The notes under the pieces: model-generated
Told to the model about the DNA's origin: nothing
Seen by the model: only the letters and a program-made list of their open reading frames with translations
The model's database searches: none
Assembly: GCA_037444125.1 (NCBI GenBank)
Contig: JBBINA010000001.1
Coordinates: 13,961 to 77,960 of the forward strand
DNA length: 64,000 bases
Reading direction: 5' to 3'
DNA from: a bacterium
GTDB taxonomy: Bacteria; Patescibacteriota; Minisyncoccia; JBBINA01
Shown: positions 7,507 through 37,047 of the stretch, piece after piece
Position numbering within the stretch: position 1 is the first letter of the stretch
How the letters are laid out: every line of letters begins with the position of its first letter
Translations under genes and position numbers: made by a program

Positions 7507-7740
7507 TTAAGAGCACTTGAAAGTTGCGATTAATTTTTTTTATAAATAAACTGGAAGTATTGCTGAATGCCGTTCTTTTTAAAAAGCTTACGAACGGTCA
7601 GTCAGCAAAATTTACTCATGCCGAGGTGGTGGCGCACGCAAAAACGCTCGATAATATACTTCGACGATACAGGGGAAGGTGGAGACCGTTGGCTATTTAC
7701 CCACCTAATTATCTAACGGTTGAGACCTATTTATTTTTTT

Positions 7741-9027
7741 ATGAATAAATTCGAAAAAATCACCTTTCAAAATGGGCTTGTTTTGCTTTTTGCTGCTGTT
7801 AGAAATGTTGAAACTTTTACTTTTGTTGTGGCAAGTAAAGTTGGTTCAAAGTACGAAACTTTGGATAACAATGGTATTAGTCATTTGCTTGAGCATATGG
7901 TTTTTAAAGGTACAGATAAATTTAAAAATCAACAGGAGCTAAGTTTTGCTTTAGAGAATATCGGTTCAAGTTATAATGCTTTTACGGATAAAGAGGTGAC
8001 GGCTTATTATATTAAGGGCGATTTGAAATATTTTGAAGAAGCAGCCGGGATTTTAGCTTCAATGTATTTGAATCCTCTTTTACCTCAAGAAGAACTTGAA
8101 AAAGAAAAAGCGATTATTCGACAGGAAATTTATATGTATCATGATAACCCGTCACGATATGTTAGCGATTTATTTGAATACACTTTATTTGAAGGGTCAA
8201 GTCTTGGTTTTGAAATTGCTGGTTCAGAAGAAAGTTTATCTAAAATTAATTGGCAGATGTTGACTGATTATTATCAATCAAATTACATTCCCCCTAATAC
8301 TATTATCGTGGTGGCTGGTGGTTTAGACAAGAAGAGAGCTTTAAACGCCATTAAGAAACATTTTATTTTTTCTAAGGCTAGCTTGAAGGTGAAGAGTAAT
8401 CAAACTTTTGAAATACCGATAAGCAGCAAATCGGATATACGGATTCATTATAAAGAGACTAAAGAAGCTCATATTAAAATTGGTTTTCCAGCTTATGCTT
8501 TCAATGATGAAAGAAGATATATTTTGGGTGTTATGTCATGTATTTTGGGTCAAGGTATGGGATCATATCTTTTTTCTAAGATCAGGGAAGAATTGGGACT
8601 TTGTTATTATATTTTTTCTGAAGTTGGTGCCTACAAAGAAACTGGTTTTTTGGGAATTCAAGCTGGTTTAAACAATGATAAGCTTAAGCAAGGCATTATA
8701 GAAACATTTAAGATTTTAAAGAATCTTAGAGACAAAGAAGTGAATCAAAAGGAACTTAGACGCGCCAAAAATTTCTTAATTGGTAATTTCTTATTGAGTC
8801 TGGAGTCAAATTTTCAGCTAGCTAATTTCTATCTTATGCAGGAAGTGGCTGGCTCGCCTAGGATTTTAACGCCTGACGAAGTTATTAAAAAAACTTCTAA
8901 GGTTAGCTCTCAAAATATTAAAGTAATAGCTCGTGATATCATTAAAAGCCATTGTCTTAAAATTGCCTTGGTTGGACAATTTAAAAAAGATGAATTTAAC
9001 GATATAATGAAATTTGTTTTCGAATGA
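7741..9027 (+). CDS. M16 family zinc peptidase (insulinase-like)
   Basis: inverted zinc motif HLLEHMVFKGT; ~430 aa two-domain architecture; ATG 7741 preferred. Confidence 0.8.
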   Translation: MNKFEKITFQNGLVLLFAAVRNVETFTFVVASKVGSKYETLDNNGISHLLEHMVFKGTDKFKNQQELSFALENIGSSYNAFTDKEVTAYYIKGDLKYFEEAAGILASMYLNPLLPQEELEKEKAIIRQEIYMYHDNPSRYVSDLFEYTLFEGSSLGFEIAGSEESLSKINWQMLTDYYQSNYIPPNTIIVVAGGLDKKRALNAIKKHFIFSKASLKVKSNQTFEIPISSKSDIRIHYKETKEAHIKIGFPAYAFNDERRYILGVMSCILGQGMGSYLFSKIREELGLCYYIFSEVGAYKETGFLGIQAGLNNDKLKQGIIETFKILKNLRDKEVNQKELRRAKNFLIGNFLLSLESNFQLANFYLMQEVAGSPRILTPDEVIKKTSKVSSQNIKVIARDIIKSHCLKIALVGQFKKDEFNDIMKFVFE

Positions 9028-9067: not shown

Positions 9068-10081
9068 ATGCCTGAATCAGTCGAGATTTCATTTAAAACC
9101 ATTGTTAAGACAATTTTATTTCTTGTGGCTATTATTTTTGTTCTTTGGGTTAAAGAGTTGATTATTGTCCTAATTATTTCATTTATCATCGCCTCAGCTT
9201 ATGCACCATTGGTTGAAAAACTTAAAGAGAAAAAGGTGCCGCGGGTTTTAAGTGCTTTGTTGCTTTATTTGGTTACTCTAGCGGTTTTGTCATTTTTAAT
9301 TTATTTGGTTATTCAGCCGTTATCGCAGGAATTTTACCAAATTTCCAAGAATATACCTCAGATAATTAACCAATTTACAACTTCGTCATTTTTTAAGGAA
9401 TACGGCTTAGAATTAAAGGACGCTTTGCTTAATTTATCAACCAAGTTGCAGTCGCTTTCGCTTAACGCGATTAATCTTTTAATTGCTCTTTTGGGAGGAT
9501 TTTTACAAACAGCCGTAGTTTTAGTATTATCTTTTTACCTAACTATTGAAAATAGAGAAATTCAGAGTTTTATTTCCGTTATATTCCCTAAAAAATATCA
9601 GAACTTTTTTTTAAAGATTTGGGTGCGTTCGCAAAAAAAACTAAGCTCCTGGGTTAAGGCACAATTCCTTTTGATGTTAGTTGTTAGTGTTGTTTCTTTT
9701 TTGGGGCTTTCTTTATTGGGTATTCCTTTTGCCTTATCCTTGGCAATTCTTTCTGGTCTTTTTGAAATTATTCCTTATGCTGGGCCAATATTTGCGGCTA
9801 TTGTAGCTATTTTTATCGCTCTTATTTATACCGGACCTTTTTATGCCTTACTTACTTTGATTCTATATTTTTTGATTCAGCAACTAGAGAATTATGTGAT
9901 TGTACCCAAAATTATGGAACGCACTTTTCACTTAAGCCCTGTAATGGTTATTAGCGCTATTTATATTGGCGCCAAACTAGGTGGAGCCATTGGCGGATTT
10001 TTAGCTATTCCAGTTTCACTTCTTATTAGCGAAGGTATAAAAGAATATCAAGAATTAAAGAATGTTGAAAATGATTTATAA
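9068..10081 (+). CDS. AI-2E family transporter (UPF0118/PerM-like)
   Basis: 337 aa, ~8 TM, conserved IPYAGP motif region. Confidence 0.65.
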   Translation: MPESVEISFKTIVKTILFLVAIIFVLWVKELIIVLIISFIIASAYAPLVEKLKEKKVPRVLSALLLYLVTLAVLSFLIYLVIQPLSQEFYQISKNIPQIINQFTTSSFFKEYGLELKDALLNLSTKLQSLSLNAINLLIALLGGFLQTAVVLVLSFYLTIENREIQSFISVIFPKKYQNFFLKIWVRSQKKLSSWVKAQFLLMLVVSVVSFLGLSLLGIPFALSLAILSGLFEIIPYAGPIFAAIVAIFIALIYTGPFYALLTLILYFLIQQLENYVIVPKIMERTFHLSPVMVISAIYIGAKLGGAIGGFLAIPVSLLISEGIKEYQELKNVENDL

Positions 10082-10805
10082 AAGATTTTATATTGAATCA
10101 AAAGATTTTGAGCAATTTTCCTTTAAAGATAATATCGTCGTGTTGATGAATAAGGACTTAAGACATCGACTTTGTCACGTTTTGCGTCTAAAAGCGGGCG
10201 ATGAACTGATTTTGTTTACTGATCAGAGCATTGAGTATTTGGCGACTATTAACGAAGTTACTAAAAATTCTATTGTTTTTAAAATTAAGAGAGTGTTAAA
10301 ATTTGCAAATCATTTGACAAGACAGATTATTGTCTTTTTTTCTTTGATTAAAAAATCTAGATTTGAGTGGGCTTTGGAAAAGTTGACCGAGTTGGGGGTT
10401 TATAAAATTGTTCCCATAGTATGCGCTAGAACCGTAGTAAAGATAGATAAAATTCCTCAACGCTTTAAGAGGATTTTAATTGAAGCTTCTGAACAGTCAG
10501 GGAGGACATCAGTGCCGGCAATAGAAGATCCCTTAACTTTCAGCGAAGCTGTTCGGAAAGTAATCTCTTTTCAAGATGCAATTAATATTCTTTTCGATTC
10601 TAGTGGCGAGAAATTATCCGACTATAATGCTGATTTAAACAAAAAAAGAAAAATTAATATTTTTGTTGGTCCTGAGGGTGGTTTTACAGATGCAGAAATT
10701 ACAGAGGCGACGAGAAATAATTTTGAGATCGTAAAATTATCACCCTTAATTTTAAGAGCCGAAACAGCTGCAATTGTTGGCGCTTATCTGGTTTTAAATT
10801 ATTGA
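10062..10805 (+). CDS. rsmE: 16S rRNA (uracil1498-N3)-methyltransferase RsmE
   Basis: 247 aa; PUA-like N-term, C-term GPEGGFT...LRAETAA matches RsmE; overlaps upstream gene by 20 nt. Confidence 0.85.
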   Translation: MLKMIYKRFYIESKDFEQFSFKDNIVVLMNKDLRHRLCHVLRLKAGDELILFTDQSIEYLATINEVTKNSIVFKIKRVLKFANHLTRQIIVFFSLIKKSRFEWALEKLTELGVYKIVPIVCARTVVKIDKIPQRFKRILIEASEQSGRTSVPAIEDPLTFSEAVRKVISFQDAINILFDSSGEKLSDYNADLNKKRKINIFVGPEGGFTDAEITEATRNNFEIVKLSPLILRAETAAIVGAYLVLNY

Positions 10806-10877: not shown

Positions 10878-11789
10878 TTGACAAATAATAAAAATTTCTT
10901 ATTATTTGATTGGCAATTAGCTAGTTCTTTTATAAGAGAGGTGGCGTCAGTGTCGAGAATTAATCTAATTAATCCGCAAGAGTACGATTTTGTCGTGTCG
11001 CGATTAAGGGATTTTTTTAGGCGAAAGAATTTCGTTGAGGTGCCAGTTCAGCATCGTTTAAGCATTTTGGCGGCCTGTGAAGATCCAAGAACTATAGCTA
11101 CTTTTAATTACGCTGGCGCTTTATGGCCATTGCCGCAAACTGGTCAGATGTGGCTTGAATATGAGTTGCTTACAAAACCTGAGGCACGTGGTTATTATTG
11201 TATAAGTACAAGTTTTCGTAACGAGCCGGATCCAATTCCCGGTAGACATGATCTTGTTTTCCCGATGTTTGAATTTGAAACGCATGGCGATATGGAGAAA
11301 TTGATTGCTTTAGAAATAGAGCTTTTGGAGTTTTTAGGATTTGGCAATAAAGGAGATTTTGTTATAAAGGAGTATCAAGAAATTGCTCAAAGATATGGAG
11401 TTGAAGAGCTTGACTCTTCCCATGAAGAGAGGTTATTGGAAGATTTTGGGGCAGTTGTTTTTATAAAGAATTTTCCCGAAATTACTTCGCCCTTTTGGAA
11501 TATGAAAAGAAACAAAAACGGTTCATCTTGTAAAGTTGATGTGGTTCTTTATGGTATCGAGACAATTGGTTCAGCCGAAAGAAGCTGTGATGTTACGGTT
11601 ATGCACGAAAGATTTCATAATATTAGCAATGGAATATACGCGGAACTTCTTTTTGCGCAGTTTACGAGAGAAAGGGTTTTGGAAGAGTTAGAAAATTTTC
11701 TCAGGTTAAAATTTATTACTCGATCTGGCGGTGGAATAGGTATAACACGTTTAATCAGAGCTCTAAAACTTCACGGCATATTAAAATAA
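10878..11789 (+). CDS. class II aminoacyl-tRNA synthetase catalytic-domain paralog without anticodon-binding domain (EpmA/PoxA-like or AsnA-like ligase)
   Basis: motif 1 FFRRKNFVEVPVQ, motif 2 SFRNEPDPIPGRHDLVFPMFEFE, motif 3 GGGIGITRLIRAL; only 303 aa; start codon uncertain (TTG 10878 or GTG about 10938). Confidence 0.7.
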   Translation: MTNNKNFLLFDWQLASSFIREVASVSRINLINPQEYDFVVSRLRDFFRRKNFVEVPVQHRLSILAACEDPRTIATFNYAGALWPLPQTGQMWLEYELLTKPEARGYYCISTSFRNEPDPIPGRHDLVFPMFEFETHGDMEKLIALEIELLEFLGFGNKGDFVIKEYQEIAQRYGVEELDSSHEERLLEDFGAVVFIKNFPEITSPFWNMKRNKNGSSCKVDVVLYGIETIGSAERSCDVTVMHERFHNISNGIYAELLFAQFTRERVLEELENFLRLKFITRSGGGIGITRLIRALKLHGILK

Positions 11790-11796
11790 TGTTGGG

Positions 11797-11825
11797 GAGG
11801 CTAGGCTATGCCTAGCCTTTTTTGT
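11797..11825 (+). terminator. rho-independent terminator (GGCTAGGC-TAT-GCCTAGCC + T6)
   Basis: perfect 8-bp stem, T-tract. Confidence 0.7.
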
Positions 11826-11903
11826 CTTCGAAAATTTTTATTTTTAGGATGGTTTGCTAAAAAAGTTTATTTTTGTTATGATTTTTAGTATTATTAATTT
11901 ACT

Positions 11904-13358
11904 ATGAAGAAAAGGCTTTTTATTTCAACGGCAATTCCTTATGTTAATGCAGCGCCGCATATTGGTTTTGCTTTGGAGATCGTGCAGACAGATGTATTAG
12001 CGCGCTATTATAGAAAAAGAAATTATGAGGTCTTTTTTTTAACAGGCACTGATGAAAATAGTTTGACAAATGTTCGTGCAGCCGAAAAAGAGAAAATAAG
12101 TGTTAAAGAACTAGTTGATCGCAATGCAAAAAAATTTTTGGAACTTAAGGAATTTCTTAATCTTTCATTTGATGATTTTATTAGGACTACCGAAAGTCGG
12201 CATATTAAAGGCGCTCAAAAACTTTGGTTGGCTTGCAAGAAAGATATTTATAAAAAGAAATATCGAGGTTTATATTGTATTGGTTGTGAAAGTTTTTATA
12301 GTGAACGCGAATTGATAGAAGGTTTATGTCCTGAACACAAAATTAAACCAGAAATCATTGAAGAAGAAAATTATTTCTTTAAATTAGCTAACTATGAAGT
12401 TCAGCTTAAGAAGATAATTGAATCAGACGAACTTAAAATTATTCCTCAAATCAGAAAAAATGAGGTTTTGAGTTTTATTAATTCCGGTTTGCAAGATTTT
12501 TGTATTTCTCGTTCTAAAACCCGCGCTAAAAACTGGGGTATTGAAGTGCCGGGCGACTCAGGGCAAGTTATATGGGTTTGGTTTGATGCCTTGAGTAATT
12601 ACATTAATGCACTTGGTTATGCTGACGACGAGACGAAATTTAATAAATGGTGGCAGGATAATTCTAAAAAGATTCATATGATTGGTAAAGGCATTGTTCG
12701 ATTTCATGCCATTTATTGGGCGGCTATGCTTTTATCAGCTAAACTTTCATTACCATCAACGATTTTTGTTCATGGTTATGTGACTCGTGAGGGTTTAAAA
12801 ATGTCAAAAACCATCGGCAATATAGTTGATCCTTTTGAATTAGCCAGAAAATTCAGTTCGGACCCGCTTCGTTATTATCTTTTGCGTGAAATTCCAGCTT
12901 ATCAGGATGGAGATTATTCAGAGAGAAGGTTCCGCGAAATATATAAATCAGAATTACAAAATGCGTTGGGCAATCTTGTTCAGAGAGTAAGTGTTTTGGC
13001 AATTAAAAATAATGTTAAGAAATTAAATAATGTCAGCGTACGTTTTTTGATGAAACAAAAAGAAGTGGCTAGCCGTATTCAAGAGTTACTTGAAGAGATA
13101 AAATTTAACGAAGCTGTTCAAGAAATATTAAGACTAGTTGAAATAGCAAATTTTTATATTGAACAAGAAAAACCATGGTCAAAAAATAAAAAAACTAATC
13201 AAGTAATTTTGAGCAATTTGCTGTTTTTAATTAACGAAATAAACGATCAATTAAGTGTCTTTTTGCCTGAGACTTATAAAAGAATTAGGGAGCGCATTTT
13301 TGTTAAAAATAAAAGAGTGATAGTTACAGTTAAAGAACCGTTGTTTAGGGCAATATAA
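11904..13358 (+). CDS. metG: methionine--tRNA ligase (short form)
   Basis: HIGFALE (HIGH-like), KMSKT, Zn-knuckle CIGCESF...CPEH. Confidence 0.93.
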   Translation: MKKRLFISTAIPYVNAAPHIGFALEIVQTDVLARYYRKRNYEVFFLTGTDENSLTNVRAAEKEKISVKELVDRNAKKFLELKEFLNLSFDDFIRTTESRHIKGAQKLWLACKKDIYKKKYRGLYCIGCESFYSERELIEGLCPEHKIKPEIIEEENYFFKLANYEVQLKKIIESDELKIIPQIRKNEVLSFINSGLQDFCISRSKTRAKNWGIEVPGDSGQVIWVWFDALSNYINALGYADDETKFNKWWQDNSKKIHMIGKGIVRFHAIYWAAMLLSAKLSLPSTIFVHGYVTREGLKMSKTIGNIVDPFELARKFSSDPLRYYLLREIPAYQDGDYSERRFREIYKSELQNALGNLVQRVSVLAIKNNVKKLNNVSVRFLMKQKEVASRIQELLEEIKFNEAVQEILRLVEIANFYIEQEKPWSKNKKTNQVILSNLLFLINEINDQLSVFLPETYKRIRERIFVKNKRVIVTVKEPLFRAI

Positions 13359-13396
13359 AAAGCCTCATAACTATAACTAATTTTATGAAGCTGCAG

Positions 13397-13751
13397 TCAC
13401 TGTTTGTTTGGTTTTTGTGCTAGCTTTAGGATAAGACATTTGATTGTTTTGGGTTTGGTACCGATTGGCCAGAAAAATTGAGCTACATCGGTATGTTTTA
13501 TTTTTGATTTATGCCAACATTTAAATGAAATAGTTACGCCAAAACTAAACTTTATTTTACCGTCGGTTAGTCTTGCTATGACAGTAATGTCTTTAACATT
13601 TTGATCTTCGTGAGAATTTGCTGCATGGCGGATAAATTTCGTTAGATTTTTTTCATTTGGATCAAATTTTTTCAACGCTATCTTCAAGGAATTGACATGC
13701 GTTTCGTGCGTCTAATGGAGAATTCGTTGGGCTTGCGTTTGTTTTTACCAT
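13397..13751 (-). CDS. hypothetical protein interrupted by a frameshift in a homopolymer run
   Basis: 96-aa ORF 13397..13687 plus upstream 29-codon ORF (MVKTNASPTNSPLDARNACQFLEDSVEKI) fuse if the A6/T6 run at 13667-13672 is one nt shorter. Confidence 0.35.
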
Positions 13752-13789
13752 ATTTATTATTTATGTATGCCTCCTTTAGAGCGGAAGTT

Positions 13790-14275
13790 CTAATTGAATT
13801 TCATCTTTAATGGGTATACCGTGATAGCCAATATGGGGAATTTGGGGCTTGAGTTTGCGCGATTCTTTTATGGCATCGGGGTATATTTGTGTTATTCTGA
13901 AGCCGCGTTTTGAAAGAATTGCAAGGCATTTAGATTATCATTAGTGGTTATTAGCCATATTTTGTCTAATTTTCTTTGACGGGCCATTTCGATGATTTTT
14001 TCCAAAACAATACTGCCAAATCCGATATTTTGGATATCACTATTGAGCGTAACTATTTCACAATGTTTATTTTTATTTGGTATGTTAGTACGGCGAGAAC
14101 CTGTTTTGTAAGAGCTTCGAATAATATTAAATTAGGAATTTCTAAAGCGTTAATTATTTTTTTGGCGCCTAACTATTAGAGACGTTTCTCAGTGTTTGGA
14201 AATAAATTTAGCTAATCATTCAGAGTCACCAGCAACTTTGTGGTGGATTAGAACATATTGCGATTTCATATTTCA
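13790..14275 (-). pseudogene. GNAT family N-acetyltransferase, heavily decayed
   Basis: minus-strand fragments ...NIGFGSIVLEKIIEMARQRKLDKIWLITTNDNLNALQFFQNA... and GFRITQIY... resemble GNAT motifs A/B but are split by stops and frameshifts. Confidence 0.4.
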
Positions 14276-14532
14276 CCCCTTATGTTATTATTATAGTGTG
14301 CGGTTATTTTTAAAAATCAAGTTTCACAAATAAAAAATAAAGGAGTTGTAAATTAAATTTAGACATTTACAATAAATTTAAATGATAAATATTGGAAAAT
14401 TTTACCAGAGATTTTTGGGGGCATTTTTTGCATTGGTATTGATATATCTGCCTTTAAAAAAATATTAATCATCAGTGCAAATTTAAATGAACACTCTGCC
14501 GAAGCGGCTGTTGTTACTCAAAGAACGGGGTA

Positions 14533-29800: not shown

Positions 29801-30101
29801 AGCCAACAAGATTTTTGGCTAGAATTGTAAGATGGTATCTTTTTTGATCAACTTTGGGAATTTTGCTCGTATAAGAACCCGCCGCCACATAAAATTCGCA
29901 GCCGATGATTGGTTTTATGCCCTTTTCTTTGCAAGCTTTATAAAACTCGATGGCTCCGTATAAGTTGCCATGATCTGTTAGGGCAACGGCGTCCATACCA
30001 AAATCAACGCATCTGTCGATAATATCTTCAATCCGCGAAAGTCCATCAAGGAGGGAATAATTGGAGTGAGTATGAAGATGTATAAAACGAGATTTAGCCA
30101 T
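26892..30101 (-). CDS. dnaE: DNA polymerase III alpha subunit
   Basis: 1069 aa; PHP domain N-term HLHTHSNYSLLDG, polymerase core, OB fold. Confidence 0.97.
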   Translation of the reverse strand: MAKSRFIHLHTHSNYSLLDGLSRIEDIIDRCVDFGMDAVALTDHGNLYGAIEFYKACKEKGIKPIIGCEFYVAAGSYTSKIPKVDQKRYHLTILAKNLVGYHNLIQLVTKSWLEGFYYKPRIDLELLTKHSEGLICFSGCLNSQISKTILAGKINEAKKLIDKMYGIFGKNNFYLELQPHPNIPEQQIVNKALIDFSKSLKIPLVLTYDSHYIKSTHKTAQDVLIAIQTNESDPEERLSMKKEDFSFPDEAKMMQYINLLDLPEESLVNTSIIKDSIHLDLEAKKKIMPIFKVPPGETDFSYLKKLANAGIKKRFNFDQLTKTQKQTIKKRLDYELKVIQQTGFSSYLLIVQDFVNYAKQNRIVVGPGRGSAAGSLVSYALNITDIDPLKYGLMFERFLDPERITFPDIDIDFADRRRDEVIEYARQKYGQNNVAQIITFGKIKSKQAVRDVGRILGLPYSFCDSISKLIPTNYPLKKASLEIPELRKQYTSDPKVRELIDIAIDLEGVARHVSKHACGVVMADKALHNYLPLQYATTDSKDKNNTIISQYDMKAIEEIGLLKMDFLGLRNLTIIEDTLSLIKKYKNINLDIEKDDYTDKKTFEILQDGSTVGVFQLESDGMRRYLSELKPTELEDIIAMISLYRPGPLDAGQVEHYINRKNKLEKIEYLHPGLEPILNKTYGIAVYQEQLIEIARQLAGFSYSQADKLRRAVGKKIKSLLIEEGEKLVTGMVKNGIKEQVAKRIWNWFIPFARYGFNRSHAACYAVIAYRTAYLKASFPLYFICALLINEGYKIERIAQLLDETKRLNIEVLPPDINESDENFTPIEKGDVLQIRFGLGAIRNVGENLAKSIVETRNANGNFKNLADFIQRVKHKDLNKKSFEALIKSGCFDQLGENRLQLLYNIDYLLKMNREKETIGMQETLFDEQQSLNLKLEKFPDQDTYENDKLRWEKEFLGLYISGHPLKSFQHKLSLGYSLKKIRQSNLKTVKTVALITNLKKVLTRNNKRMAFCRIEDLTGSAECIVFPNLYELKHMCLREENVLIIKGKVERFENQIKIIAEDLEELSK

Positions 30102-30104
30102 TTT

Positions 30105-31496
30105 TCAAATGTTTATTTTAATGTTTAATTCACTTAACTGCTTTTTGGAAAGTTTTGAGGGTGCGTCCATAACAGCTGTGCGCCCAGAACTTGTTTGCGG
30201 AAATGCTTGGACTTCTCTGAGAAATTGCTCACCAGTTAAAATCATAATTAATCTTTCTACTCCATGAGCAAGCCCTCCGTGGGGAGGCGCGCCATAAGAA
30301 AAAGCTTCAAGCATATGGCCGAATTGTTCCTGAATAACTTTTTCTTTATAGCCCATTATTTTAAAGACTTTTTTTAGGATTTCGGGCTTGTTAGAGCGTA
30401 TACTGCCGCCGCCGACTTCATAGCCATTACAGATAAGGTCATATTGAGTTGTCAGAATTTTATCTATATTTTTTTCTTTTAAGAGCCAGTCAATATGTTC
30501 AGGTTTCGGTTGAGAAAATGGATTATGGGTGAAGGTCCAGTGACCATCTTTATCCTTTTCAAAAAAAGGAAAATCAATTACCCATGCAAAAGCAAGTAAT
30601 CCTTTTTTCTTTTCTTCTTCATTTCGTAAATCAAATTTATCGGCTTTAAATTTTTTTATAGCTTCCTGGTAAGTGAATATAGGAAATGGCTTTTCTTTAA
30701 TTTTATAATTCAATTTTTCAACGATTGTAGTTATCATTTCTTCATCCAGTTTCATTACATCTTCTCGTTCAACATAACTCATTTCAAGATCGATTTGCGT
30801 ATGTTCAAAACCACGGTCGGCTCTTAAGTCTTCGTCTCTTAGGCAGCGAGCGATTTGAAAATATCTTTCAAAACCAGCGACCATTAAGAGTTGTTTATAT
30901 TGCTGTGGACTTTGGGGTAGAGCAAAAAATTTTCCTGGATGTAGACGTGAGGGCGCTACAAAATCTCGCGCGCCTTCAGGGGTAGATTTGGTTAAAATAG
31001 GTGTTTCAATTTCAATAAAATTTTTTTCAAACAGAAACTCGCGGGCCATTTGGACGAATTGTGAACGTAGTTTGATATTCTTTTGCAGGCGTTGGCGACG
31101 CAAATCAAGATAGCGGTATTTTAATCTTAGCTCTTCGTTAATTTCATAGCCGTCGCTAGTTATACTGAAAGGCAAGTCTTTAGCGGTTGAAAGAATTTGG
31201 AGTTCATTTACTTCGCCTTCAATAGAGCCAGTGTCTAGATTAGGATTAATGGTTTTTCCAGGACGTTTATGAATAATCGCTTTAACTGCGATTATAGATT
31301 CGTTTTTAAGACCATCTATTTTTTCGAAAATTTCTTTTTTGGCAGGAAGGATAACCAGTTGTAGAATTCCTGTCATGTCTCGAAGATCAATGAATTTGAT
31401 TTTTCCATGATCGCGCTGTGAGTTGACAAAACCTGCTAAAACTACTTCTTGATTTACTTTATTTAAGGTCTTCTTGATTAAAATGCGATTTTTCAT
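30105..31496 (-). CDS. aspS: aspartate--tRNA ligase (compact form without GAD insertion)
   Basis: N-term OB fold, FRDEDLRADRGFEHTQID, GGGSIR, GLAHGVERLIMIL; 463 aa. Confidence 0.88.
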   Translation of the reverse strand: MKNRILIKKTLNKVNQEVVLAGFVNSQRDHGKIKFIDLRDMTGILQLVILPAKKEIFEKIDGLKNESIIAVKAIIHKRPGKTINPNLDTGSIEGEVNELQILSTAKDLPFSITSDGYEINEELRLKYRYLDLRRQRLQKNIKLRSQFVQMAREFLFEKNFIEIETPILTKSTPEGARDFVAPSRLHPGKFFALPQSPQQYKQLLMVAGFERYFQIARCLRDEDLRADRGFEHTQIDLEMSYVEREDVMKLDEEMITTIVEKLNYKIKEKPFPIFTYQEAIKKFKADKFDLRNEEEKKKGLLAFAWVIDFPFFEKDKDGHWTFTHNPFSQPKPEHIDWLLKEKNIDKILTTQYDLICNGYEVGGGSIRSNKPEILKKVFKIMGYKEKVIQEQFGHMLEAFSYGAPPHGGLAHGVERLIMILTGEQFLREVQAFPQTSSGRTAVMDAPSKLSKKQLSELNIKINI

Positions 31497-31648
31497 TTTT
31501 TAGTATTGACATATTAGATTTGATTTGTTAGCATTATAGTGTCTTCTAAATCATCTGCCGGCTAACCTCTTTTTCTGGCTGACCTCCTTTCTAGCTTTAT
31601 AGTTCAGCTAGTTTAGGTGTTCTCCCTCCTTCCCTCTCTTTGTTGGGC

Positions 31649-31680
31649 CCGATACTCCACTCGGGCCCTTTATATTTAAT
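31649..31680. other. GC-rich perfect hairpin GGGCCCGA-N8-TCGGGCCC in the pepA-aspS intergenic region
   Basis: 8-bp all-GC stem in AT-rich DNA; T-tract follows on plus strand, polypurine tract on minus strand. Confidence 0.4.
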
Positions 31681-31682
31681 AG

Positions 31683-33161
31683 TTAATTTTTTACAAATTC
31701 GAATAATAACCATACGCCATAGCCAGTTGCCCCTTTTTCTTGCCAGAGAGTATCTTGTGAATAAAAAGCTGTGCCGGCTACATCAAGATGTAAAAAATTA
31801 TAATCTTTGGCAAAAAATTCCAAGAAGGCTGCTGCTGTAATTGCACCGCCGGGTCTTCCGCCTAAATTTTTAATGTGAGCCACCTGAGATTTATTTTGTT
31901 CTCGGTGTTCATCGTATATAGGTAGCTGCCAGACTCGTTCACCTGAAATTGCCGCAGCCCTTTTTATTCTTTTTGCCAATTCCTCATTATTAGTAAATAA
32001 GCCTGATGCCCAATTGCTTAAAGCGATAATACATGCACCAGTCAAAGTAGCTACGGTTATAATGGCTTGGGGATTATAAGTCTTTTTGGCATATTCAATG
32101 GCATCGGCTAGGATGATTCTACCTTCTGCGTCAGTGTCAAGCACTTCGACTGTTTTGCCGCCATATATTTCTAGAATATCGCCCGGCTTAAATGAAGTAT
32201 GACTAGGCATATTTTCAACAATAGGCAGAATAGCTACAAAATTCTTTTTTATGCCAAGAGATTTTAGCAGAAAGGCGCTTGAAGCTACTATACTGCCTCC
32301 TGACATGTCAGATTTCATTTCATCAAGACCTTCACGTGGTTTAATAGAAATACCCCCTGAATCAAAAGTGACTGATTTTCCAATCAAGACTAGAGGTCTT
32401 TCTTTTGGATTAATAATATTTTCAATAATCAGCAGGTGTGGCTCATGGCATGAACCGCGACCAACGCCTAGAATACCGCCAAATTTATTTTTCTCCAGTT
32501 CTGCTTTAGCCATTAATTTAACATTAAGATTAAGCTGCTTAGCAGTTTTAGCTAATTCTTGAGCGAAGGTAGATGGAGTAAGTTTTGAACTGTGTTCGTT
32601 AATATGGTCTTTGGAATAGTTAATCCATTTAATCAATTCGCGGCCAAAATCTAGATTTTTCTCTATTTTACTAATAAGCTTAACGTCTTTGATTAGAAGA
32701 TGAGCTGTTTTGAGAGGTCTAATCTCGTTATTAGCACTAATGTATTTTAAAAATTTATAAAAACCATTATTAATACCTTTTATAATATGAATTAGAGTTT
32801 GGTTGTTGTTTTTGGTAATAGTGAGAAGCGATTTATCAATTACAAGATTAAATTCGTCAATATTTTTTAATTGAAGGTTACGGCCCAATAAAGAAAAAGA
32901 TTTAAACACAGCAAAAGTGTCTGTGTAAATCTCTTTTTTGTCTAGTCCGTAAAGTATGAAAAATCTATTTTCCTGATTTATTGTCGTAAAAATGTCACCA
33001 AGTTTTCCTTTAAAAAAATTCAAAATTTGTTTAGCTGTCATTTGAGAGAAATTAAGCTCGTTTATAAGATATGTTTCGTTAAGGTTATTTTGAAATATAG
33101 GAAATACTGTAGGTAACCGTGGATTTGAAGTTTTGTATGTTTCGACAACAAATTGATTCAT
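31683..33161 (-). CDS. pepA: leucyl aminopeptidase (M17)
   Basis: NTDAEGR-type motif VLDTDAEGRIILADA, MKSDMSGGS. Confidence 0.92.
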   Translation of the reverse strand: MNQFVVETYKTSNPRLPTVFPIFQNNLNETYLINELNFSQMTAKQILNFFKGKLGDIFTTINQENRFFILYGLDKKEIYTDTFAVFKSFSLLGRNLQLKNIDEFNLVIDKSLLTITKNNNQTLIHIIKGINNGFYKFLKYISANNEIRPLKTAHLLIKDVKLISKIEKNLDFGRELIKWINYSKDHINEHSSKLTPSTFAQELAKTAKQLNLNVKLMAKAELEKNKFGGILGVGRGSCHEPHLLIIENIINPKERPLVLIGKSVTFDSGGISIKPREGLDEMKSDMSGGSIVASSAFLLKSLGIKKNFVAILPIVENMPSHTSFKPGDILEIYGGKTVEVLDTDAEGRIILADAIEYAKKTYNPQAIITVATLTGACIIALSNWASGLFTNNEELAKRIKRAAAISGERVWQLPIYDEHREQNKSQVAHIKNLGGRPGGAITAAAFLEFFAKDYNFLHLDVAGTAFYSQDTLWQEKGATGYGVWLLFEFVKN

Positions 33162-33896: not shown

Positions 33897-33970
33897 TCCG
33901 GGATCGTCTAATGGCAGGACGCCACGCTCTGGACGTGGAGATTGGGGTTCGAGTCCCTGTCCCGGAGCCA
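33897..33970 (+). tRNA. tRNA-Gln (anticodon CUG), CCA-encoded
   Basis: cloverleaf folded by hand: acceptor TCCGGGA/TCCCGGA with U1:A72 typical of bacterial tRNA-Gln, D stem GTCT/GGAC, anticodon stem CCACG/CGTGG, loop CTCTGGA, T arm TGGGG-TTCGAGT-CCCTG, GCCA end. Confidence 0.85.
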
Positions 33971-36040: not shown

Positions 36041-37047
36041 ATGCCTATACGAATTGGTCTGAATGGTTTTGGGCGGACAGCGCGGACTTTTTTTAGAATT
36101 GTAAGCGAAAGTCCATCGGTTGAGCTTGAGGTTGTAGCTATTAATGTAAAAAGTCAAAGCCCAGAGCAAGCAGCTTATTTACTTAAATATGATTCAGTAT
36201 ATGGACGATACTCCAAAGATGTATTGTATAACGATAAAACCATCAAAATAGAAGGTTGCGAAGTTCCGATTCTACAGGTTTCAGACCCGGCAGAAGTTCC
36301 TTGGTTTAAGTTTGATGTAGATATAGTTGTCGAAGCAACTGGGAAGTTTAGATCATTTGATAAAGCAGCTAAACATCTTGCCAGCGGTGGAGTTAAAAAA
36401 GTGCTTATTACTGCGCCGGCAAAAGGCGATATTCCCACTATTGTCTTTGGGGTTAATGACAATATTTATAACAAAAAGAGGTATCATATAATTTCAGCTG
36501 TTTCTTGTACTACTAATTGTTTGGCACCTGTGGCTTTATTTTACATAAAGAGTTTGGAATAAAAAGGGGTTTAATGACTACGGTTCATGCTTATACTGGT
36601 AGTCAAAATTTAGTGGATAGCAGTAACGAAGATATGGTTGAAGGCCGGGCGGCGGCTGTCAATATTATTCCGACAACAACAGGAGCGGCTAGCGTCATAG
36701 GTTTAGTAATCCCGGAACTGAAGGATAAACTTGATGGTATGGCTTTTCGCGTGCCCGTTCCTACAGGATCAGTGATTGACCTAGTAGTGGAATTAGAGAA
36801 GAAGGTTCTTGTTGAAGAGGTTAATAATATTTTTAAGCAATACGCTTTTGGTCAATTTAAGAAAACACTTGGTATTTCTGAGTGGCCATTAGTTTCCTCA
36901 GATTGTATTGGCGATAGCAGATCTGCCATTGTTGATTTAAGCTCAACTAAGATTATTGATGGAGACTTTTTAAAAGTAGTAGCTTTTTATGATAATGAGT
37001 GGGGTTATTCTGCGAGACTTGTTGATATTGCTAAAATGCTTTTATAA
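36041..37047 (+). CDS. gapA: glyceraldehyde-3-phosphate dehydrogenase, interrupted by a 1-nt frameshift near 36535-36545
   Basis: GLNGFGR, SCTTNCLAP then frame switch, then GLMTTVHAYT; two overlapping ORFs 36041..36562 and 36517..37047; strong SD AAAGGAGGT. Confidence 0.85.

Follow-up and report, generated by a model that had tools for sequence, protein, structure and literature searches.

We analyzed a 64-kb window (64,000 nt, the whole stretch of DNA studied) of contig JBBINA010000001.1 from a member of the Patescibacteriota, and focus here on one gene, probably 10950..11789 on the + strand, that encodes a class IIb aminoacyl-tRNA synthetase (aaRS) catalytic core standing alone. Genes of the same family are naturally fused to pyrimidine-biosynthesis genes and repeatedly lie beside them. 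Arguing from sequence and genomic context, we suggest, as the reading with most support, that the family may be an adenylate-forming enzyme of uridine monophosphate (UMP) synthesis that supplies dihydroorotate, a role for which we consider the case evenly balanced; the exact reaction proposed below we hold less likely than this place in the pathway.

Fusions and gene neighborhoods link the family to pyrimidine synthesis

Two independent natural fusions join the family domain to pyrimidine enzymes. In P0242 a DHO_dh domain (5-307) precedes the family domain (370-638), PyrD first, within a single 1986-nt open reading frame (ORF) that is identical on 7 contigs and divergent from a UMPS-like gene. 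In P0271 the family domain is fused to orotidine monophosphate decarboxylase (PyrF), and PyrE and PyrD adjoin.

Unfused family genes keep similar company. Clustering the neighbors of 86 cellular loci gave, as top partners beyond clade-level synteny, a class 1A dihydroorotate oxidase (NF002702, 483 bits) and PyrE or a fused PyrE-PyrF. Adjacency to PyrD, PyrE or UMPS occurs in metagenome-assembled genomes (MAGs) labeled Patescibacteria, Chitinophagales, Aureispira, Alphaproteobacteria, Myxococcota and Dependentiae, and in giant-virus MAGs. With "target" denoting the family gene, the order is UMPS(-)|PyrD-target in Chitinophagales and Aureispira, target-UMPS-PyrD in one Myxococcota MAG, target-PyrD-PyrE-S51 peptidase-PyrF on one Patescibacteria contig, and PyrE-PyrD-x-PRK06886-ArgH-target in other Patescibacteria. 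In several members of this last phylum the amidohydrolase PRK06886 (AtzC/CodA-like), ArgH and the family gene form a tight trio, often 3' of pyrE-pyrD; the ArgH is a true ArgH (TIGR00838, 314 bits against a cutoff of 279.5), and the nearest solved relative of PRK06886 is AtzC, which hydrolyses an alkylamine from an amidine carbon.

A tblastn census of 256 family-centered loci (3.2 Mb, 10 kb reach) found PyrD near the gene in 21/256 and PyrE/UMPS in 27/256, giant-virus MAGs included. Within 10 kb of the same 256 loci there was no match to E. coli PyrB, PyrC or CarB, or to Gracilibacteria CarA or CarB, bar one weak generic amidotransferase match; this absence is local, not genome-wide. The neighbor pattern was repeated in an independent metagenome sample composed of general family members, not close Peribacteria relatives, and in a neighbor-joining tree the pyr-linked copies fall in at least five separate clades. 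The family is linked to the de novo pyrimidine pathway by fusions and by recurrent adjacency. At the loci surveyed its gene travels with the three late enzymes of the pathway and never with the three early ones, a pattern to be expected of an enzyme supplying dihydroorotate.

Other neighbors gave less. The Peptidase_S51 of the target-pyrD-pyrE-…-pyrF operon (L006:10674-11261) is of the dipeptidase E / cyanophycinase family, which cleaves Asp-X, hinting at peptide-derived aspartate. The order gatC-gatA-target, seen on two Gracilibacteria/Peribacteria contigs, was considered as a "GatB replacement" and rejected, the relatives' slot being empty or filled by carA/carB, with gatB in none. In Gracilibacteria of the same synteny this slot holds carA/carB (L323:7591-8673, 11200-12858), an AsnRS-like gene (L020:6403-7287) or nothing (L324), and behaves as a metabolic-gene insertion hot spot with no functional link. 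Adjacency to PEPCK was set aside as limited to one Flavobacteriia clade, and the metG/RsmE adjacency of the window gene was dropped because it does not recur at the other loci examined. A tRNA-Gln lies within 1-5 kb of the family gene at about 14 Patescibacteria loci in at least three arrangements (for example L001:12517-12588, L012:15186-15257, L007:6375-6446, L038:14916-14988 and L078:12636-12709), probably as clade synteny.

The window gene encodes a stand-alone core of the asparaginyl-tRNA synthetase lineage

An uninterrupted + strand ORF spans 10878..11789 of the window, giving 303 aa from a TTG, and is a real gene. Pfam PF00152 (tRNA-synt_2) matches it at 56.6 bits (cutoff 25, E 2.8e-15) over residues 39-296, and class II motif 2 (SFRNEPDPIPGRHDLVFPMFEFE) and motif 3 (GGGIGITRL) are both present. 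A preliminary description had given the protein as 303 aa; the ORF exists as described, but its start is likelier an in-frame GTG. The alignment of 29 homologs begins at '..INLI.P', which is GTG 10950 in the window gene, and the 24-residue extension from the TTG is conserved in 0 homologs, Bacteroidota copies bearing a different leader. Because the homologs start there, the extra residues are unconserved and GAGAGGTGG stands ahead of the GTG, we rejected the long TTG start; the true protein is probably 279 aa (10950..11789). The features of the gene are as follows, with residues in the 303-aa numbering used throughout:

10950..11789, + strand: likeliest coding sequence, a stand-alone class IIb core of probable asparaginyl-tRNA synthetase (AsnRS) derivation, from the alignment start, Shine-Dalgarno position, PF00152 and the AlphaFold (AF2) fold
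10878..10949, + strand: in-frame upstream extension from the TTG start, probably untranslated (unconserved; pLDDT 53-67)
10936..10944, + strand: Shine-Dalgarno-like GAGAGGTGG, 5 nt ahead of the GTG, read from the sequence
11136..11159, + strand: QTGQMWLE, residues 87-94, predicted AsnRS-type amino-acid-binding motif (Q..Q..LE), aligning with QSSQLYLE of Brugia AsnRS
11211..11279, + strand: class II motif 2 STSFRNEPDPIPGRHDLVFPMFEFE, with R114, E116, R123, H124, E132 and E134, aligned to E. coli AsnRS and family-invariant
11538..11585, + strand: DVVLYGIETIGSAERS (D221, E228, R235), predicted class IIb metal/side-chain-binding segment, invariant and aligning with DVLAPGIGEIIGGSQRE of E. coli AsnRS
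11721..11759, + strand: class II motif 3 RSGGGIGITRLIR, with R291, in a GGGIG form like GGGIGQSR of E. coli AsnA
11798..11824, + strand: terminator-like hairpin AGGCTAGGC-TAT-GCCTAGCCT plus T-run, read from the sequence, between the gene and metG

By sequence and predicted fold the protein amounts to the catalytic core of a class IIb aaRS, minus the anticodon-binding domain: PF00152 scores above its cutoff, R114, E116 and R291 are invariant, and the AF2 model (pLDDT 88, pTM 0.86) folds like the cores of AsnRS, aspartyl-tRNA synthetase (AspRS) and lysyl-tRNA synthetase (LysRS). No OB-fold or anticodon-binding domain is present in the ORF, and of about 120 listed homologs nearly every one measures 275-300 aa. 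Such a domain cannot fit upstream, because RsmE (10062..10805) ends only 72 nt before the ORF, and neighbor surveys found no separate OB-fold/anticodon-binding protein gene beside the family gene. Downstream lies metG (11904..13358; TIGR00398, 418 bits), described as a short MetRS of 484 aa. The preliminary account of a stand-alone class II aaRS paralog next to metG, lacking the anticodon-binding domain and carrying a FRNE-type motif 2 and the GGGIGITRL motif 3, is thus borne out by PF00152, the motifs and the neighbors.

Within class IIb the family sits apart from every named group. All the curated NCBIfam models that it touched (AsnRS, archaeal AsnA, EpmA, AspRS, LysRS) gave 16-32 bits against cutoffs of 264-468. 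It fails as a canonical AsnRS (TIGR00457 and NF003037: 24.6 and 31.6 bits, cutoffs 342.6 and 414), as EpmA (TIGR00462 and NF006828: 20.1 and 20.8 bits, cutoffs 286.9 and 264) and as archaeal AS-AR (NF005055 and NF005053: 24.6 and 23.8 bits, cutoffs 389 and 322). Against solved structures the family profile placed AsnRS first (Brugia 2xti, E 4e-8) and archaeal AspRS next, with archaeal AsnA 3p8t at just E 0.009. Foldseek of the AF2 model found AsnRS 1x54 and 9sh8 nearest (1x54, E 1e-16; both about that value) and archaeal AsnA at rank 41; no EpmA structure was among the profile matches or the top 50 Foldseek matches. Scores of hhalign against E. coli proteins, all three weak, ran AsnRS 34.7 (30% identity across motifs 2 and 3), EpmA 28.6 (E 0.004, probability 8.6%) and AsnA 23.9 (E 0.02, probability 2.4%, failing as full-length homology).

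The active-site comparison called for in the preliminary description, made against Brugia and E. coli AsnRS, returned an AsnRS-type pocket: QTGQMWLE against QSSQLYLE (QxxQxxLE), an RH…E.E segment and a GS.ER segment (GS..R) are common to both. The family differs from AsnRS in motif 3, which is GGGIG as in AsnA instead of GFGLG, in an extra invariant acidic residue (ED for EGG), in two invariant cysteines, in the missing anticodon-binding domain and in its genomic links to pyrimidine enzymes. On this evidence the family is a distinct offshoot of the AsnRS lineage, outside the EpmA, AsnA and AS-AR families.

The family is widespread and tightly conserved

A word-indexed protein search scored at least 7999 relatives, nearly all of 275-300 aa, under generic or wrong database names ("amino acid--tRNA ligase-related protein", "aspartyl/asparaginyl-tRNA synthetase", "tRNA ligase", "transposase"); the last of these, borne by some Kaiserbacteria and Yanofskybacteria copies in NCBI, is a mis-annotation. 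The family is unusually tight, since a library clustered at 50% identity reduces its relatives to 179 clusters (E ≤ 1e-30). Among GTDB species-representative genomes 403 matching stretches were confirmed; the MAG labels of 80 loci kept out of these are Patescibacteria, Pacearchaeota, Dependentiae, Bacteroidota, Alpha- and Gammaproteobacteria, Myxococcota, Kapabacteria and Neomarinimicrobiota. DPANN archaea are among the carriers. The gene is also on at least 578 IMG/VR contigs. Viral carriers include true giant viruses (NCLDV capsid protein in 17 loci), the cyanophages P-SSM2, P-SSM5 and P-SSM7, and megaphages; the plasmids searched held none.

Conservation reaches ≥97% at 73 positions in 138 distinct proteins drawn from all settings; these positions include every catalytic residue, the two cysteines, and Q87, Q90, L93 and E94. 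Because the catalytic and AsnRS-type pocket residues are conserved to this degree in every context, we read the family as having one shared biochemical activity, that of an active adenylate-forming enzyme. Our literature search found no paper on this family, on its phage tRNA partner (below) or on any alternative dihydroorotase; a 2010 cyanophage comparison merely lists the "tRNA ligase" as a sporadic host-like gene (PMC3037559).

Some viral or virus-like settings are unusual. On a 484-kb uncultured phage the family gene lies between two TnpB/IS605 OrfB genes (L322:503-1795, 10932-12254), and on a 735-kb one a RimK-type ATP-grasp ligase (520 aa) lies 94 nt 3' of it (L321:6940-8502). Two 467-kb contigs (L003, L004) carry copies with eIF-1A, TFIIB, Rpb5, ERCC4, PolX and RING-finger genes, and L089 carries one with DSHCT helicase, protein kinase and SWIB genes and a weak DHO_dh gene 1.6 kb off; all three contexts are giant-virus-like or archaeal/eukaryote-like.

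One phage clade pairs the gene with a tRNA-Asn(GUU)

In P-SSM2 and P-SSM7 a tRNA of 86-88 nt with anticodon GUU and a long variable arm follows the stop codon of the family gene by 7-9 nt. The phage tRNA(GUU) positions are:

L170:7808-7894, P-SSM2
L171:7800-7885, P-SSM7
L102:10832-10920, further phage tRNA(GUU)
L135:2343-2444, further phage tRNA(GUU)

The GenBank position of the P-SSM2 tRNA-Asn is about 2 kb from that given by ARAGORN and Rfam.

A covariance model, R1, built from nine phage tRNA(GUU) RNAs matches directly 3' of the family gene at 34/82 viral and 19/80 metagenome loci, and near it at none of 84 cellular loci. It has no match in the window, where the gene is followed by the terminator only. 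Reciprocally, the family gene lies upstream in 67/68 viral stretches that have the tRNA signature and enough room to judge. Across 57 distinct phage tRNAs 99.9% of cells are paired, with compensatory changes in 15/20 pairs; U1-A72 (56/57), G73 (57/57) and GUU (57/57) are fixed, position 37 is U in 52/57, and the variable region varies from 13 to 41 nt. The tRNA also has an encoded CCA and a tRNA-Leu-like D-arm. Judged by these patterns, the phage RNA is a real, constrained, class-II-shaped tRNA-Asn with the Asn identity set fixed, and it forms with the phage gene an apparently undescribed and very consistent pair, whatever the enzyme's function.

The tRNA-linked copies are essentially one clade of the neighbor-joining tree (20/25), so the linkage may be inherited, for instance as a relic of a viral AsnRS/tRNA-Asn pair, and not functional. 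The phage proteins have no added basic residues, being the most acidic group (net charge about -20), and none of their phage-specific changes touches the invariant core. The pairing nevertheless keeps two asparagine-centered explanations of the family alive, an asparagine synthetase and a domain-less AsnRS, to which we return below.

Discussion

We propose that an AsnRS core lost its anticodon-binding domain and was recruited to UMP biosynthesis as a ligase of small molecules. With ATP and an aspartate-type substrate bound, it would make an acyl-adenylate, as every class II core does, and hand dihydroorotate to PyrD. It would thereby replace the early steps at dihydroorotase and, conceivably, at aspartate carbamoyltransferase too (PyrB as well as PyrC). 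AsnA and archaeal AS-AR are class II cores that activate the aspartate β-carboxylate for nitrogen attack. The simplest reaction would be N-carbamoyl-L-aspartate + ATP to dihydroorotate + AMP + PPi. The β-carboxylate would be adenylated, a step known from asparagine synthetase A, and the attacking group would be the ureido nitrogen of the same molecule in place of ammonia. Since closure of the dihydroorotate ring amounts to AsnA-like chemistry with a tethered nucleophile, an ATP-driven carbamoyl-aspartate cyclo-ligase in place of PyrC would be the most economical version. An irreversible form of this thermodynamically unfavorable ring closure would suit a viral auxiliary gene. In Patescibacteria the trio might run from arginine + fumarate through argininosuccinate to carbamoyl-aspartate + ornithine, and on to dihydroorotate.

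The acidity of the protein and the lack of an OB-fold partner encoded beside its gene we count for a small-molecule role. What we observe is a class II fold, intact residues for binding ATP and an amino acid, descent from AsnRS, fusions to pyrimidine enzymes and the neighborhoods; which substrate the enzyme takes, which product it gives and which way the link runs, we infer from these.

Several points weigh against a place in pyrimidine synthesis. Some 85% of loci lack a pyr gene within 10 kb, none lies anywhere in the 64-kb window, and giant viruses and phages mostly hold the family gene alone. De novo pyrimidine synthesis is generally considered absent from most Patescibacteria, a group in which the family is nonetheless very common. 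The pocket residues look asparagine-binding, as in AsnRS, and use of a carbamoylated substrate is something we infer. Pyrimidine chemistry also leaves the tRNA-Asn(GUU) directly after the gene in one phage clade unexplained.

A bolder version, which we think unlikely, has the enzyme, PyrD, PyrE and PyrF forming a complete, horizontally mobile alternative UMP route that bypasses aspartate carbamoyltransferase and dihydroorotase; separately, the phage clade may keep or re-use the protein with its class-II-shaped tRNA-Asn as an orthogonal charging pair. Dihydroorotate would then be built from aspartate or asparagine and a one-carbon/nitrogen donor (for example Asp + carbamoyl phosphate or urea + ATP), the donor in some Patescibacteria being fed from arginine via ArgH and the AtzC-like hydrolase.

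The strongest competitor to a dihydroorotate-supplying enzyme is a tRNA-independent, ammonia-dependent asparagine synthetase (Asp + NH3 + ATP to Asn). It would provide asparagine to genomes and viruses that are AT-rich and Asn-hungry, and AsnA/AS-AR chemistry would have arisen independently a third time, here from an AsnRS core. AsnA remains the closest mechanistic analogue in our comparison, and this function is a live rival, though a quite unlikely one. It would account for the AsnRS-type pocket (L93/E94, E132, R235) combined with an AsnA-like GGGIG motif 3, it would work as a lone gene, in keeping with giant viruses, with phages and with the housekeeping surroundings in the window, and it suits both the coupling to tRNA-Asn in phages and the AT-richness of the carriers seen (the window is about 34% GC). 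It leaves unexplained the PyrD and PyrF fusions and the repeated pyrD/UMPS adjacency in several clades; the gatC-gatA adjacency, a variable insertion slot, lends it no functional link.

Archaeal AS-AR (PDB 3p8t/3rex), an AspRS/AsnRS-like core that makes Asn without tRNA, offers a precedent of the same architecture: its core is about 290 aa long, an anticodon domain is missing, and the TM is 0.62-0.66. It exemplifies the step that we propose for the family, from synthetase to small-molecule amide ligase. Its sequence kinship is marginal (E 0.009; NF005055, 24.6 bits against 389), and it is a separate offshoot with another genomic context. Membership in the AsnA or AS-AR families, which the preliminary description had entertained, does not hold, the models giving 24-25 bits against cutoffs of 322-389, 3p8t E 0.009 and E. 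coli AsnA an hhalign E of 0.02. E. coli AsnA shares GGGIG and the proposed chemistry of β-carboxylate adenylation and nitrogen attack, but at a probability of 2.4% it is no family member, and its nucleophile is ammonia as opposed to the intramolecular ureido nitrogen proposed here.

A minimal AsnRS that charges tRNA-Asn without an anticodon-binding domain, in phages as an orthogonal pair with the long variable arm as handle, seems to us very doubtful. Its best support is the phage tRNA itself, which lies 7-9 nt past the stop in P-SSM2 and P-SSM7, recurs at viral and metagenome loci with a near-perfect reciprocal association, and is strongly constrained with its Asn identity set fixed; class II aaRS enzymes, moreover, face the variable region of the tRNA. 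Against this, the linked copies are essentially one clade, the phage proteins are the most acidic and have neither extra basic residues nor changes in the invariant core, and the supposed handle varies threefold in length. The 73 invariant positions are common also to copies from cells and giant viruses, which have no such tRNA near, and the pyrimidine fusions are left unexplained.

The remaining alternatives raised in the preliminary description fall away. An EpmA (PoxA/GenX) enzyme lysylating elongation factor P (EF-P) shares the class IIb core without anticodon-binding domain and matches weakly (hhalign E 0.004), but is effectively refuted by scores of 20-21 bits against 264-287, by AsnRS and AspRS, not LysRS or EpmA, being nearest in profile and fold, and by the AsnRS-type pocket; EpmA is LysRS-derived and acts on EF-P Lys34, whereas this family appears AsnRS-derived and has no EF-P context, the suggested search for efp and epmB having found neither among the window genes scanned nor in the neighbor census. 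An amino acid:carrier-protein ligase does not fit a core of class IIb and not SerRS-like class IIa, and no carrier protein family is among the 25 commonest families of 148 immediate neighbors. An annotation artifact, the 3' part of a full-length AsnRS or AspRS that lost its N-terminal domain to a frameshift or wrong start, has nothing for it but the missing domain and is refuted by RsmE 72 nt upstream, which leaves an OB-fold domain no room, by thousands of homologs of about 280 aa, and by the gene's own Shine-Dalgarno sequence and terminator.

Elsewhere in the window, overlapping ORFs at 36041-36562 and 36517-37047 (173 and 176 aa), the first matching only the N-terminal half of type I GAPDH (1-164 of 330), suggest a gap gene broken by a frameshift or split in two, or else an error of sequencing. 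An M16-family peptidase at 7720-9027 scores 122 and 107 bits with the YfmF/YfmH "EF-P 5-aminopentanol modification-associated" models, below their cutoffs of 285 and 250, and is probably a generic M16 peptidase. The roughly 1.2 kb after metG (13359-14532) hold no + strand ORF of at least 100 aa, no tRNA and no R1 match; the sole tRNA of the window, a tRNA-Gln at 33897-33970, is 22 kb from the family gene. GC skew is positive in all 2-kb bins but one (30001-32000, -0.004), and up to about 26.9 kb every ORF of at least 100 aa lies on the + strand; the window thus seems to belong to a single replichore.

If the family does supply dihydroorotate, a textbook pathway has an unrecognized, non-homologous enzyme for its ring-closing step. 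This class II aaRS fold would achieve the same net ring closure feeding PyrD as dihydroorotase PyrC, a TIM-barrel metalloenzyme of the amidohydrolase superfamily to which it has no homology; the proposed reaction is ATP-driven and irreversible, that of PyrC a reversible equilibrium. The enzyme would occur in thousands of genomes of CPR bacteria and DPANN archaea, which are among the least understood microbes, and in bacteria that are predatory or free-living; phages and giant viruses would carry it as an auxiliary metabolic gene. Pyrimidine pathways called "incomplete" in reconstructions of reduced genomes would read differently. A common mis-annotation ("Asp/Asn-tRNA synthetase", "tRNA ligase", "transposase"), which can also mask a missing AsnRS, would be corrected. 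Beside AsnA and AS-AR, the family would be a third case of a synthetase core recruited to small-molecule amide chemistry.

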